In this document: positions 36,568 through 41,613 of the stretch, piece after piece
Layout of the letters: every line of letters starts with the position of its first letter
Numbering within the stretch: position 1 is the stretch's first letter
Assembly: GCA_039545335.1 (NCBI GenBank)
Contig: BCIN01000001.1
Coordinates: 372,001-436,000, forward strand
Source: Kondoa subrosea
Lineage: Eukaryota
Reading direction: 5' to 3'
DNA: 64,000 bases
Made by a program: the position numbers and the translations under genes
Notes under the pieces: generated by a model
What the model was told of the DNA's origin: nothing
Seen by the model: the letters and a program-made list of their open reading frames with translations, nothing else
Databases searched by the model: none

Positions 36568-37494
36568 ATCAGCATACAGTGCTCACCAGACTATCCATTG
36601 TATCGCTTTGCCTCGGCTTCAATATGGTGCATTGTATAGTCAATGATCGAGACACTGCCAAAGTTGCAGCTGTTGTTGAAGGAGAAATAACGCGGCAGAA
36701 GAGGAAAGGAAGGAAGGCGAACGAGGAATGTCACACATATAATGAAAGAAGAAGCAAAAGAATTCCGATGCCCAAAAAATTAACTTTTCCTTTCCCTACC
36801 AAAACGAAAAGCCTTAATCTAGATAGAAGCGATTCTAACTTTTCCTGAGACTTATTGTTCTTCTCCACTGACCTCTTCTACTCCACTGATCTCTTGAAGA
36901 CGCGTATTCAGTTCAGACACAAGATTTCTGAGTTTTCGTCAGGAGTGTCAGAAACATTATTTTCAGTCGAAGCATAAAACGACTAACACTCTTCTTGAGC
37001 TTCTTCTTCGTACTGTTGCTCTCCTTCCTCTTCATCATCAAGCGAGGCATCTTGATACTGAGCACAACAGAAACGTTAGTACACGCACAATGGAGCGAGA
37101 GCATTGAACGGACTTGTTGATATTCAGAAACCAAACTACAGGACAACAAGTCAGCGTTCATCCTTTCAGAGCGTAATGGAGACAAGGCTTACTCTTGCAT
37201 GTTGGATTCAGCTTCTGTGAACTCCATCTGAGGCCAGATAGATCAGTCACACGGTCAGTGTAGGCGGATCAAGTTCTGTACCTCGTCCATTCCCTCGGAA
37301 ATGTACCAACTAATTCAATAAAATCAGGAATTAATCTGTAAGTAGAGGGAAGGAACCATACTGAAGGAAAGCTTTTCTCCTGAACATGGCAGTGAATTGA
37401 TCGGAAACACGCTTGAAGAGTTCTTGAATGTAGGTGCTGTTGCCGATGAACTATGACAGGCGCAATACGTTACTACACATATGCTTACGGCAAA
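36568..37494 (-). repeat. Left arm of ~0.9-kb inverted repeat (copy of the beta-tubulin 3' region 40702-41613)
   Basis: Direct base-by-base reverse-complement match, e.g. 37450 downwards TTCATCGGCAACAGCACCTACATTCAAGAACTC vs 40743 TTCATTGGAAACAGCACCTGCATTCAAGAACTC; outer end CAATGGATAGTCTGGTGAGCACTGTATGCTGAT vs CAATGGCTAGTCTGGTGAGCACCGTATGCTGAT. Confidence 0.97.
36926..37450 (-). pseudogene. Orphan beta-tubulin 3' fragment (last ~81 codons, introns intact); functional status unknown
   Basis: Splices to [81 protein letters not shown] with no stop or frameshift; no tubulin sequence upstream of 37494. Confidence 0.75.
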
Positions 37495-37775
37495 AGTTGA
37501 CGCGTAGGCTATTTGCCCTTCAGGTTTGATGTGCAAGAAGAGCACAAAGAGATCTTCTGGCAGGCGAGATACGTAAGAAAAGGAGGACCCCAGAAGAAGC
37601 GGAATAGCTGAAGTTCTGCCTTCTCGAAAAATGATGCTCATAAGAAAGCAAGGAAAGTAGAACAGGACAAAGCGAAAAAAGGATCCGGCGAACGAGACCA
37701 AACCTTTCTTCTAAGGCAGTAGTATTACATTTTACAAGTGACGTACACGAGGACCCAAAAGATTGAGACGCAAGA

Positions 37776-38513
37776 TTAGTCTGTTATAAGTTCACTGACT
37801 CTGTGATTGAAACGTCACATCAGAAGATCAGTAATGATCAAGAGGCAACAATGTAACCCTCACTTCCAATCTTCGAAAGAGCCATCAGGTAGATACCGCC
37901 GTACCACTAGAGGAATTTTCTTTTGCGCTAGTTCTTTCATTGCAATGTCGAGAGGATCTGATTCATGAGGTTCCAGCGGTACGAGAACAGGTGCGTTCAT
38001 GCTGTCCATGAGAAAAAGCTACATCAACGGCAAGGTTGATGCTACTCCACTCCACTCCCACTGACCTGATCTGCAACGCCCTTGTACCTAATATCCTAGC
38101 CTTTTCATATTTTGTCATGAAAGGTGTAGTGAAGCGTTCCTCGTTTGGCTGAGCGTTATTGGTTCCATCCGTAAAGCCATTAGGAGCACCACCAGAATGC
38201 ACTATCCCATTCGGATCCCCATCTTCATGCATGCCATTTGGTAAACCATCTTCACCTTCGCCTGGTTCTTCACCTGCTGCAGCATCCTCATCGATATCTC
38301 TTTCATTCAATAAATCATCTTCGTCCTATTGATCCATTCCAATGCAAGCATTAAGTGACCAGACCAGCGACTGAAAGAATAACAGAAATTTACAAGTTGC
38401 GGCTCATCATCGAAACTGAAGACAGCAGAGGCCTAAGTAAAGCGATAGGATTGTCAAGAGGATGCTACTTACTCTTCTGGTACACCTCCAAAGTCATCAC
38501 CTGCGTCAGACAT
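37776..38513 (-). CDS. RPB6: RNA polymerase I/II/III shared subunit RPB6 (RPABC2)
   Basis: [32 protein letters not shown]...[31 protein letters not shown]; acidic N-terminus; four introns. Confidence 0.95.
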
Positions 38514-38803
38514 GGTCGTTCTCTAGGGCAAGAATTCATACTTAGCAAAAAATGCCACCTCGACTCACGAACTCGGATGCGCCTTGCCGATTAGTAGCGC
38601 TTGAACCGCGACACTATCCTTTCTAGCTCTACTGCTACGTGTCCTGTAAGGCTCTACACAACCAGAATCACGTAAAGGCTCTGGCTTACTCTCGCCTTGT
38701 GCTCGTTTACGAACTTGTTTAGTTTCTACGACACACCTTCATATTTGGGTTTCGCTTACACTCCTTTTCAACATATATCTACCCCTTTACACAGTAAAAC
38801 AAC
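38514..38803. promoter_or_regulatory. Bidirectional promoter region RPB6/beta-tubulin
   Basis: 290 bp between divergent ATGs at 38513 (-) and 38804 (+). Confidence 0.6.
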
Positions 38804-41267
38804 ATGAGAGAGGTCAGCTACAAGCCTTTGTTGAAGTGCAGAGAAAGGTCGAGCTCAATGCATTTTCTATCGTGTGATGAATAGATCGTACACTTGCAGA
38901 CTGGTCAGGTCAGTAGATCAGTGCAACGGCCTCTGGATAGCTTGCTCATGGCCTTGAACAGTGCGGTAATCAAATTGGAGGTGAGTTAGAACGCGACTTT
39001 GCCTCTTGCAAAGTCATTGAGAAGCCGGATTCTGATGTATCTGCCTGAGTTCAGCTAAGTTTTGGGAGGTACGGCCTAAATTCATCAAAGACGAAAGACT
39101 TGGAGAGCTCAGACTTAGAGAAAAATAGGTCATTGGTGATGAACATGGTATCGATAACACCGGCGCGTAAGTCAAGGCTTCTGGACTGGCTTTGGCCATA
39201 CCTTAGACGCCTTGAATTACAGCTACAAGGGCAACAACGATCTTCAGCTAGAACGTATCTCTGTTCGTCCTTTCAAGCTTATGCAAATTAATCTTGTTTG
39301 AGCTATTGTTTGGGACAACAGGTCTACTACAACGAAGTAGCAGGCAACAAATACGTCCCACGTGCCGTTTTGGTCGATTTGGAACCTGGTACGATGGATT
39401 CAGTTCGATCCGGACCATGCGGAACTCTCTTCAGACCTGATAATTTCGTCTTCGGTCAATCCGGTGCCGGTAACAATTGGGCAAAAGGTCATTACACGTC
39501 AGTGATGGATCGCAGCTTAGCAAGAGGAATGCTTACTGATTATTCTTCATCTGACAGCGAAGGAGCCGAATTGGTTGACAGCGTTATGGATGTAGTACGC
39601 AAGGAAGCTGAAGGATGTGACTGCCTGCAAGGTTTCCAGATCACTCACTCTTTGGGAGGTGGAACTGGTGCCGGAATGGGAACATTGCTCATCAGCAAGA
39701 TTCGAGAAGAATTCCCAGGTCAGCACATTTTCACTACTTACTGAGAAAATCGAGCTGAGAATCGTGTATAGATCGAATGATGGCCACTTTCTCGGTCGTG
39801 CCATCCCCTAAAGTATCAGACACCGTCGTCGAACCTTACAACGCTACCCTTTCAGTACATCAATTGGTCGAAAACTCAGACGAGACTTTCTGCATTGATA
39901 ACGAAGCTCTTTACGATATCTGCTTCCGGACGCTCAAACTCCAGACTCCTACTTATGGCGATCTCAACCATTTGGTTTCGGTTGTCATGTCTGGTATCAC
40001 TACTTGCTTGCGTGTACGTTAATCTCTTCTCGTATAGAATATCAAAGCATATCAAAGCTAATCTTTATATACAGTTCCCTGGTCAGCTAAACTCAGATCT
40101 TCGTAAATTGGCCGTCAACATGGTGCGTTCATTCCGCTAGGTGATTAGAGCTAGTAAGCTAAGAGAAGTGTATGTCTGGAGGTTCCTTTCCCCAGACTGC
40201 ACTTCTTTATGGTAGGATTCGCCCCTCTCACCGCTCGTGGATCGCAATCATACCGCGCCGTCACCGTTCCTGAACTCACTCAGCAAATGTTTGATGCCAA
40301 GAACATGGTCAGAGATTCCCTGATGATATTGAGGCTATTATACTCATTTCACTTGGCCTCTGTCTGACAGATGGCTGCTACTGATCCTCGCCATGGACGA
40401 TACTTGACTGTTGCTGCTTACTTCAGAGGAAAGGGTGTTTCTATGCGCGATGTTGAAGAGAACATGAGTGAGTATTTCTGGTTCGTGCTTCTTTGCGCAT
40501 GAAGCTAATGTGTATATGCAGTCTCCGTACAGAGCAAGAACAGCTCTTACTTCGTTGGTGAGTGATGGCATCAACTCTGCAAGTTTGCATTGCTGAGCCT
40601 TCGTCATATTCACAGAATGGATCCCCAACAATGTTCAAACCGCTCATTGCGACATTCCTCCACGCGGCTTGAAGATGTCGGTTACCGTAAGTCGAGCCTT
40701 CTTTGTCGCAAGAATATATGGTAATCTATGCGCCTGTTATAGTTCATTGGAAACAGCACCTGCATTCAAGAACTCTTCAAGCGTGTTTCCGATCAATTCA
40801 CTGCTATGTTCAGGAGAAAGGCTTTCCTTCAGTATGGTTCCTTCCCTCTACTTACAGATTAATTCCTGATTTCTTTGAATTAGTTGGTACATTTCCGAAG
40901 GAATGGACGAGGTACAGAACTTGATCCGCCTACACTGACCGTGTGACTGATCTATCTGGCCTAAGATGGAGTTCACAGAAGCTGAATCCAACATGCAAGA
41001 GTAAGCCTTGTCTCCATTACGCTCTCAAAGGATGAACGCTGACTTGGTGTCCTGTAGTTTGGTTTCCGAATACCAACAAGTTCGTTAATGCTCTTCGCTC
41101 CATTGTGAGTGTACTAACAATCTTGTTGTACACAGTATCAAGATGCCTCGCTTGATGATGAAGAGGAAGGAGAGCAACAATACGAGGAAGAGGCTCAAGA
41201 AGAGTGTTAGTCTTTTCATGCTTCGACTGAAAATAATGTTTCTGACATTTTTGACGAAAACTCAGAA
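38804..41267 (+). CDS. TUB2: Beta-tubulin (about 19 introns)
   Basis: [80 protein letters not shown], acidic tail; stop T|AA split by final intron 41206-41265. Confidence 0.98.
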
Positions 41268-41613
41268 ATCTCTCTTCTAGATAGGATGCGCATATCCGAG
41301 AGATCAGTGGAGGCGGAAGAATAAGTCACAGGAAAAGTTAGAATCGCTTCTATCTAGATTAAGGCTTTTCGTTTTGGTAGGGAAAGGAAAAGTTAATTTT
41401 TAGGGCATCGGAATTCTTTTGCTTCTTCTTTCATTATATGTGTGGCTTTCTTCGTTCGCCTTCCTTCCTTCCTTCCCTCCACCGCGTTGTCTCTCCTTCA
41501 ACAACAGCTGCAACTTTGGCAGTGTCTCGGATATTGACTATACAATGCACCATATTGAAGCCGAGGTAAAGCGATACATACAATGGCTAGTCTGGTGAGC
41601 ACCGTATGCTGAT
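40702..41613 (+). repeat. Right arm of inverted repeat (tubulin intron 3' end, last exons, 3' UTR region)
   Basis: Reverse complement of 36568-37494; see left arm. Confidence 0.97.

Follow-up and report, generated by a model that had tools for sequence, protein, structure and literature searches.

The RPB6 and β-tubulin genes of Kondoa subrosea lie side by side between two inverted copies of the tubulin 3′ end, only one of which is joined to the rest of the tubulin gene. The locus is probably a fixed inverted segmental duplication, left behind by an earlier rearrangement and serving no programmed switch. The state of the spare copy shows, in addition, that either it was truncated long after the two copies diverged or the module is in use, and this unusual preservation matters more than the value of the finding for annotation.

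A repeat search of the window, i.e., the whole 64-kb stretch of DNA analyzed here, located two inverted arms of ~0.92 kb each at 36558-37495 and 40700-41623. They consist of four collinear pieces: 36881-37464/40729-41312 (584 nt, 91%), 36701-36860/41316-41475 (160 nt, 95%), 36599-36695/41482-41578 (97 nt, 94%) and 36558-36603/41578-41623 (46 nt, 87%). Since the whole window contains no other repeat of at least 80 nt, direct or inverted, a chance origin is excluded. A gapped alignment with the right arm taken as 40721-41623 gave 60 mismatches in 887 aligned columns (93.2% identity, 6.8% mismatch) and a further 39 gap columns, the arms being identical over at most 73 nt in a row; a fainter likeness (~15/19, judged by eye) extends inward to ~40700/37495. 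The arms are non-repetitive genic sequence and bracket the two-gene segment exactly. The following features were defined:

35238..36163, minus strand: left neighbor, calcineurin-like metallophosphoesterase (Pfam PF00149, E 1e-7)
36558..37495, minus strand: left arm, inverted tubulin 3′ module (93.2% identity to the right arm; own short-read contig)
37450-37362, 37309-37282, 37227-37193, 37135-37114 and 37057-36983, minus strand: left-arm copies of exons 15-19 (gene model)
37776..38513, minus strand: RPB6, RNA polymerase subunit (5 exons, 161 aa, complete, wholly in the unique center)
38514..38803, no strand: divergent RPB6/tubulin intergenic region (~290 nt, gene-model coordinates)
38804..40686, plus strand: β-tubulin exons 1-14 (codons 1-367), in the unique center (GT/AG throughout, open frame)
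40700..41623, plus strand: right arm, tubulin 3′ module in use (repeat search, alignment, gene model, bridging contigs)
40743-40831, 40884-40911, 40966-41000, 41058-41079 and 41136-41210, plus strand: right-arm exons 15-19 (gene model)
40763..41060, plus strand: low-divergence tract (left-arm equivalent 37133-37430; alignment)
41271..41325, plus strand: hypervariable patch, 60-115 nt past the stop codon (left-arm equivalent about 36851-36922; alignment)
42141..43682, plus strand: right neighbor (ORFs; transcribed away from the repeat)

The coordinate-built model of the whole β-tubulin gene comprises 19 exons (38804-41210, plus strand) with GT/AG at every intron, for a product of 449 aa. The last exon in the center, exon 14, stops at 40686 (...GLKMSVT); exons 15-19 fall in the right arm. 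Pfam Tubulin PF00091 matches exons 7 and 9, and exon 15 matches residues 367-395 of β-tubulin in the PDB. For RPB6, the Pfam match (PF01192) involves exon 3 alone, at E 3.3e-4, which is under the family cut-off. According to the gene models these two are the only genes of the center, and we infer from its position only that the intergenic DNA between them is a shared promoter. Both arms comprise the acceptor end of intron 14 and exons 15-19 with the stop codon, followed by a downstream stretch of ~410 nt in the left arm and 413 nt in the right. An earlier reading of the letters alone (hereafter the sequence-only reading) had noticed an inverted repeat around RPB6 and the tubulin 5′ part. The repeat search and the gene models show that this repeat is real and agree with the 3.2-kb center then described, running to the intron after GLKMSVT. 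The arm ends given at that time (36568-37494 and 40702-41613) proved correct to ~10-20 nt, and the stretch past the stop, put at ~350 bp, measures ~413 nt.

Lacking a promoter, a start codon and exons 1-14, the left arm is untranslatable in the assembled state, where tubulin expression relies on the right arm. All AG acceptors and GT donors of exons 15-19 are nevertheless intact in the left arm, as are the reading frame and the stop codon. Its coding part differs from that of the right arm by 10 synonymous changes and one non-synonymous change, 10 of the 11 falling at third codon positions, so that the two modules share 81 of 82 residues. The sole amino-acid difference is at codon 374 (TGC to TAC, C374Y), ~40-60 nt from the inner boundary of the arm; the eight coding differences outward of the innermost ~60 nt are all synonymous. 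Gap columns number 0 in 249 coding versus 39 in 638 non-coding columns. Under a model in which one copy is neutral, at most one non-synonymous change among 11 coding differences has a probability of 0.0004-0.0015 (kappa 3.4-10), while the same test against the non-coding divergence is looser (P 0.0002-0.1). A freely decaying copy would be expected to have gathered ~5-10 changes at first and second codon positions, probably along with an indel or the loss of a splice site. The 10:1 ratio of synonymous to non-synonymous changes rejects free decay of the left arm at P about 0.001. A younger truncation, the first of the two options named at the outset, would correspond to a lost paralogue or to an origin from two diverged alleles.

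As the source of the duplication we favor an inversion of the RPB6-tubulin pair through staggered breaks, in which the stretch between the staggered cuts, from intron 14 to ~410 nt past the stop, would have been filled in and so have left a copy at each end of the inverted DNA. The available part of Ranz et al. (2007, PMC1885836) describes inverted duplications at 17 of 29 Drosophila inversions, with a mean identity of 88 ± 5.4% and a median length of 321 bp (46 bp to ~1.9 kb), and just one duplicated breakpoint region in 12 inversions. The present locus resembles the duplications described there in that formerly single-copy genic sequence stands inverted at both ends of a segment, and its arm size (0.92 kb), identity (93%) and single duplicated breakpoint region lie within the Drosophila range. 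It differs in the tiny size of the inverted segment (3.2 kb, two genes), set against a model described in flies, and in the spare copy, where the decay expected of a staggered-break duplication is not found: there is no frame or splice damage, and all but one of the 11 coding changes are synonymous. Our literature searches found no fungal example of a staggered-break inverted duplication.

Because the spare arm is so well kept, a plain staggered-break origin is insufficient and would have to be supplemented by a recently truncated paralogue or diverged allele, or by real use of the arm. In an equally static variant, a complete inverted tubulin paralogue or a diverged allele would have been stripped of exons 1-14 in the recent past, so that the spare copy would still look selected. 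That the arms are unhomogenized, with 60 mismatches, 39 gap columns and no identical run above 73 nt, favors such a static footprint. Recombination between the diverged arms would still be possible, nearly silent, and should be rare.

Divergence is distributed unevenly along the arms. Within the low-divergence tract, 5 of 163 sites differ in introns 15-17, compared with 16 of 137 in the end of intron 14, in intron 18 and over the 60 nt that follow the stop codon (Fisher P = 0.005). The tract may be a later gene-conversion tract, which suggests that the arms exchanged sequence at least once. In the hypervariable patch, 14 of 54 sites are mismatched (26%) and 19 columns are gapped, the left arm carrying a 17-nt extra repeat unit. 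This patch is the main sequence that a flip would swap; otherwise a flip would exchange only introns and synonymous codons. Beyond it, the outer 284 aligned nt of the arms are 4.9% diverged, against 26% in the adjoining patch.

The sequence-only reading had proposed the locus as a candidate flip-flop cassette. A reversible inversion of this kind seems to us unlikely. In this model, recombination between the arms would flip RPB6-tubulin from time to time, either in cultures or as a polymorphism of the population; the outer arm parts would then alternate in providing the 3′ end and UTR of tubulin, and both modules would be kept intact by selection. The anatomy and the logic of the proposal stand: in the gene models, a crossover anywhere in the arms inverts the 3.2 kb and leaves a complete, spliceable tubulin gene. 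The 10:1 ratio of synonymous to non-synonymous changes is what use of both modules predicts. Also in favor are the complete, spliceable spare module, the position of the only amino-acid change in the innermost part, which a flip leaves unexchanged, and the low-divergence tract, which points to an earlier exchange between the arms. Several observations nevertheless speak against a switch. Recombination at the frequency of a switch should homogenize the arms, so their 6.8% divergence, with indels and short identical runs, argues against one; likewise, flipping fast enough for purifying selection to act would be expected to keep them near-identical through conversion tracts. In yeast, a divergence of 2% reduces ectopic recombination ~5-fold (PMC6511840).

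The exchangeable parts of the modules encode the same peptide, so that a flip would seem to bring no obvious payoff except through the UTR or gene order. The swap of 3′ ends foreseen by the sequence-only reading would accordingly affect UTR and downstream DNA, introns and synonymous sites, but not the protein. The left-arm SNPs at codons 369-374 that had been put forward as an RNA marker would almost never join the tubulin gene, since the inner part of an arm always travels with the center and these codons, C374Y included, stay on the RPB6 side. The second orientation is unseen in short-read contigs that were built with a different assembler (k = 31) from two runs of one sample, possibly the assembly's own data. 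Contigs of this kind, however, give the same junctions either way and would thus be compatible with a mixed population.

A more specific form of the idea is a low-frequency or polymorphic inversion that makes the modules alternate as the end of an essential gene and toggles regulation of the tubulin mRNA 3′ end in a eukaryotic nucleus; it would explain, by selection on alternately used modules, why the spare stays spliceable and its exchangeable part free of amino-acid changes, and we consider it decidedly unlikely. We know of no nuclear housekeeping gene whose 3′ ends are swapped by DNA inversion, and our literature searches found no report of one. If the spare module is in use, tubulin would be the first known gene of this type.

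Repeats of flip-flop mating-type loci are near-identical. The arms described here are not, with 93.2% identity, 39 gap columns and a longest perfect match of 73 nt. Features that the locus does share with flip-flop systems are flanking inverted repeats and genes that are intact in both orientations, RPB6 lying wholly in the center. In the available part of Krassowski et al. (2019, PMC6692504), the inverted repeat of Ogataea MAT is part of the flanking gene SLA2, which is therefore whole in either orientation. This design matches that of the present arms; as in Ogataea polymorpha and Komagataella phaffii according to that source, inverted repeats bracket a segment and the gene they cut is intact both ways. 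The same text gives for Ogataea and Komagataella repeats of ~2 kb, both orientations among cells or strains, and MAT genes that move between an expressed site and one silenced by a centromere or telomere, and for W. canadensis a 1.7-kb repeat of 97% identity. In contrast to these loci, the arms of K. subrosea are 93% identical, their cargo consists of two housekeeping genes whose products a flip would leave as they are, and no silencing context was seen, the scanned neighbors being ordinary housekeeping genes.

In the Mu G segment, shufflons and hsdS, inversion depends on a site-specific recombinase and short crossover sites, and the alternative modules encode different protein ends. Under the flip-flop model, the tubulin locus would be like them in joining a constant 5′ gene part to either of two inverted 3′ modules. 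Unlike them, its repeats are long (0.92 kb) and diverged, and no recombinase gene was found, either by Pfam among the neighbors or in the cassette center. In further contrast to the Mu G segment and shufflons, the modules agree in 81 of 82 residues, with the sole difference in the non-exchangeable inner end. Gene-altering programmed inversions are described for bacteria and phages in the available parts of two accounts (PMC9881135, PMC10028968).

Very unlikely, in our estimate, is a non-coding role, whereby the left arm would be kept as terminator or 3′ region of RPB6 or as upstream regulatory DNA of the phosphoesterase gene, and the outer part of the right arm would likewise serve upstream of the right-hand gene. 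The geometry fits, with ~280-300 nt between the RPB6 stop and the left arm, and ~395 nt between the outer end of that arm and the likely phosphoesterase ATG (~36163, from the ORF list only). An outward-facing gene lies beyond each arm, the phosphoesterase gene being transcribed away from the repeat, and the conservation of the outer 284 nt relative to the adjoining patch points the same way. Such a role would leave the third-position bias (10/11) and the intact splice sites unexplained, however, and tRNA and Rfam scans detected no element in or beside the cassette, arms included. As to the neighbors themselves, the label "DCR2-like" attached to the left one by the sequence-only reading fits PF00149, whereas "CAP64-like" for the right one found no backing, both pieces tested (42141-42485 and 43083-43682) matching no Pfam family.

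An assembly artefact, with the left arm representing the tubulin 3′ end of another haplotype or a misplaced chimeric fold-back, is extremely improbable. The arms do diverge at the level of diverged alleles, with differences resembling those of two working genes, and both runs share one sample and perhaps the assembly's own reads. In both runs, however, contigs connect left-arm-specific sequence directly with unique DNA on either side, namely the 3′ flank of RPB6 (contig 37401-40792) and the left flank (contig 35500-36640), whereas in a merged haplotype the arm would be attached to intron 14 and exon 14 of tubulin. These two contigs bridge both left-arm boundaries, and 37401-40792 and 41537-42700 bridge those of the right arm. 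In both runs all four boundaries are present at single-copy depth, which argues against the haplotype-merging misassembly considered by the sequence-only reading. The left-arm-specific contig (36818-37043) has a depth of 140, compared with 142-149 for single-copy flanks, and of 51 versus 52-58 in the second run.

Among 80 metagenome RPB6 loci, none includes tubulin. On a single distant metagenome contig (L007), RPB6 and a homologue of the EF-hand gene that lies at 44.6-45.0 kb of the window converge, with RPB6 turned the other way relative to this gene than it is in the window; this is a weak lead, the orthology of the neighbor being uncertain.

If static, the locus is a clean fungal case of a partial gene duplicate arising from a small rearrangement. 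In annotation, the fragment at 36983-37450 should neither be called a gene nor be merged into RPB6, and in K. subrosea both the mapping of reads and PCR of the β-tubulin marker may catch a second 3′ end that is 93% identical to the first.

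A repeat search of the window returned four collinear inverted pieces, jointly spanning 36558-37464 and 40729-41623, which are the sole repeats of at least 80 nt, direct or inverted, within the 64 kb. The inverted repeat claimed in the sequence-only reading is present as described there, and the arm coordinates given for it agree with repeat search and alignment to ca. 10-20 nt. When the two arms are aligned with gaps across 40721-41623 (right-arm coordinates), 887 columns are aligned and 60 of them mismatch, 41 by transition and 19 by transversion, which gives 93.2% identity; gaps take up 39 columns, and fainter similarity reaches inward as far as ~40700/37495. 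The longest perfect run common to both arms measures 73 nt, and nine identical runs are at least 31 nt long. The arms and their surroundings, with gene models for beta-tubulin and RPB6 built from coordinates, are as follows.

Features at and around the inverted repeat
35238 to ~36163, minus strand: left neighbour, calcineurin-like phosphoesterase gene (Pfam)
36558-37495: left arm, inverted copy of the beta-tubulin 3' end
36851-36922: hypervariable patch, left arm (alignment)
38513-37776, minus strand: RPB6, 5 exons, complete at 161 aa (gene model)
38804-41210, plus strand: beta-tubulin, 19 exons, 449 aa (gene model)
40700-41623: right arm, beta-tubulin 3' end
41271-41325: hypervariable patch, right arm, 60-115 nt past the tubulin stop (alignment)
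42141-43682, plus strand: right neighbour (ORF pieces)
44591-45023, minus strand: EF-hand-type gene, 3 kb right of the repeat

All 18 beta-tubulin introns are of the GT...AG type and 52-74 nt long; exons 7 and 9 are Pfam Tubulin matches, and in solved beta-tubulin structures exon 15 has its counterpart at residues 367-395. Among the exons are very short ones (9, 14, 19, 22, 24 and 28 nt) that could easily be skipped or mis-joined by automatic gene callers. The last base of exon 14 is 40686; ~14 nt further on, within intron 14, the right arm starts, and it takes in this intron's acceptor end, exons 15-19, the stop codon at 41208-41210 and a further 413 nt. RPB6 is transcribed divergently from tubulin, with the two start codons 291 nt apart, and ends in its own normal C-terminus and stop ~280-300 nt short of the left arm, which rules out that it reads into the tubulin exons. 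An open frame at 36372-36848 (plus strand, 158 codons) that crosses the outer left arm appears spurious, its right-arm counterpart being split into three short frames, and is very probably not a gene. For the right neighbour, neither of the two large ORF pieces tested had a Pfam match, which leaves the label 'CAP64-like' from the sequence-only reading without Pfam support. Elsewhere the window carries housekeeping genes (Es2, RPA43, a WBS-type methyltransferase, DUF3591 of TAF1-like type and an RSE1/DDB1/CPSF1-type propeller protein), and a tRNA scan found no tRNA gene in it.

The left arm retains all five acceptors, all four donors, the reading frame and the stop. Eleven coding differences separate the arms; the one at codon 374, Cys to Tyr, is non-synonymous, and the other ten are synonymous. 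Under a model in which the left arm is free and the right arm constrained, ~57-62% of coding differences would be expected to be non-synonymous (kappa 3.4-10); finding no more than 1 among 11 then has a probability of 0.0004-0.0015, and the likelihood ratio favours constraint on both copies by ~270-1000. Scaled to non-coding divergence, 3.8-11.3 changes at first and second positions would be expected on a free copy, with P from 0.1 down to 0.0002 depending on the non-coding class taken as neutral. At codon positions 1 and 2, a single site out of 166 differs, vs 35/584 non-coding sites when the hypervariable patch is left aside (P = 0.0017), and every one of the 39 gap columns is non-coding. 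From these patterns, the left arm looks like a truncated gene copy under selective maintenance. RIP-like mutation was rejected as the source of the differences, since transitions run in both directions (T>C 12, C>T 11, G>A 11, A>G 7) and codon positions would make no difference to a mutational process. Concerted evolution or frequent gene conversion was likewise rejected as the cause of the synonymous bias: conversion at a rate that exposes the spare copy to selection should make the arms far more alike than 93%.

Divergence is unevenly distributed along the arms. The hypervariable patch holds 14 mismatches in 54 positions (26%) and 19 gap columns, is flanked on both sides by far better conserved stretches and, in the left arm, contains an additional 17-nt unit repeating a 9-10-nt motif; it may correspond to the poly(A) region. 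Introns 15-17 show 5 differences over 163 sites, compared with 16 over 137 for the end of intron 14, intron 18 and the 60 nt directly downstream of the stop taken together (P = 0.005). This contrast fits a later gene-conversion tract at 40763-41060, which would mean that the arms interacted at least once.

On balance, we lean towards the view that the locus is the static footprint of a rearrangement, all variants of this reading taken together. An inversion by staggered breaks leaves the DNA between the staggered cuts at either end of the segment, as two copies facing opposite ways; the left arm would then mark the former site of the tubulin 3' end, adjoining the phosphoesterase gene. The arm layout is the one such an event produces. 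Inversion duplications in Drosophila likewise consist of unique genic sequence, inverted, at both segment ends: in one survey, genes or other unique sequence are duplicated in this way in 17 of 29 fixed inversions, at a mean identity of 88 +/- 5.4%; the copies have a median length of 321 bp and reach ~1.9 kb, and 12 of the inversions show duplication of one breakpoint region alone (PMC1885836). However, the decay of the spare copy predicted by the plain staggered-break model is not seen, given the 10:1 ratio of synonymous to non-synonymous changes and the absence of coding gaps. Two static variants would each repair this mismatch. The left arm could be what is left of an inverted tubulin paralogue, once complete, whose 5' part was lost only recently, or the arms could derive from two alleles already diverged at the time of rearrangement. 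The locus is a further instance of a structure type already known, and the preserved truncated copy is its unexplained feature.

The sequence-only reading had instead proposed a flip-flop cassette, in which the 3.2 kb between the arms (RPB6, upstream DNA and beta-tubulin exons 1-14) inverts and finds a usable tubulin 3' end in either orientation. We consider it unlikely that such an inversion is in use, with occasional flipping and a spare module, i.e., the left arm, that is truly used. Upon a crossover inside the arms, the inner arm part would remain with the centre and the outer part with the flank, so that the two orientations would differ solely in how arm-specific variants are phased on either side of the crossover. 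Codons 369 and 370, with synonymous differences, and codon 374 are no more than ~60 nt from the inner boundary, and their variants would almost never be moved, because identical runs are very short there; the eight coding differences in the exchangeable outer part, which include codons 421, 423, 440, 442 and 444 in exons 18-19, are all synonymous, so a flip would leave the protein unchanged. As predicted from the alignment, it would swap synonymous codons, introns 15-18 and downstream DNA, with the patch after the stop differing most. The left-arm SNPs put forward as an RNA marker are situated in the part of the arm that stays put on flipping. An inversion in use would account for the lack of decay in the spare arm, and the intact splice sites, frame and stop lend the cassette logic partial support, but the claim of a switch is unsupported by arms that are 6.8% diverged, carry indels and share no identical run above 73 nt. 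Ogataea flip-flop repeats are identical. Flip-flop MAT repeats are ~2 kb long, one of them 97% identical (PMC6692504), whereas the arms here are 93% identical. In mismatch-repair-proficient yeast, 2% divergence already cuts ectopic recombination ~5-fold (PMC6511840). Recombination at a relevant frequency should moreover homogenise the arms via conversion tracts, and we saw no recombinase and no silencing context in addition to the unchanged product.

Less probable still is retention of the spare arm for a non-coding role; at E <= 0.1, Rfam gave no match over 36000-42200.

The physical presence of the left arm was assessed with contigs from another assembler for two DNA runs (X1 and X2) of one sample and one study, which are possibly the assembly's own data and thus check the assembler, not the sample. 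One contig (35500-36640) covers unique left flank and the outermost 82 nt of the left arm. Another (37401-40792) includes the innermost ~95 nt of that arm, crosses RPB6 and tubulin and ends in the right arm, and a third (41537-42700) connects the right arm with the flank to its right. A left-arm-specific contig (36818-37043) shows zero differences. Three differing letters in each run stem from other-arm contigs placed on a near-identical stretch. That the left arm is a merged second haplotype or a misassembly is highly improbable, since a merged haplotype would connect it to tubulin intron 14 and not to the RPB6 3' flank, and since the depth of the arm-specific contig (140 in X1, 51 in X2) matches that of single-copy flanks (142-149 and 52-58). 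The contigs show no joints or loose ends at the arms, which is uninformative on orientation because all four boundary junctions are common to both orientations and 31-mer contigs break at shared runs.

The open-access literature yielded nothing relevant on an invertible or inverted-repeat-flanked tubulin locus. A protein search with RPB6 exon 3 (longer proteins, E <= 1e-10) scored none of 365 candidates, its threshold probably being too strict. A metagenome scan with the same exon gave 80 loci, all distant, with best-segment identities of 32% to 89% and at most 54% where a match covers the greater part of the exon, the variable N-terminal portion included. With positive controls alongside, no tubulin was found near RPB6 in any of the 80 loci (up to 10 kb per side), which indicates that the pairing is not widely conserved; the head-to-head arrangement looks lineage-specific. 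Left of the phosphoesterase gene, large open frames at 30875-34764 (minus strand) resemble one protein kinase gene, and their translation shows a glycine-loop motif and 34-36% identity to kinases on two of these loci (L001 and L023); as microsynteny these matches were rejected, the identity being only at paralogue level. The sole possible microsynteny among the 80 loci is on L007, a 2.8-kb contig with 64% G+C, where the EF-hand gene of the window has a match over three exons (1037-1557, minus strand; 73%, 37% and 43% identity) that is convergent with RPB6 at a distance of 0.45 kb. EF-hand proteins form a sizeable family, and the arrangement is possibly old microsynteny, the two genes being putative orthologues at most. 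Relative to the EF-hand gene, RPB6 in the window is oriented opposite to that on L007, which would be expected after an inversion in the lineage of the window.
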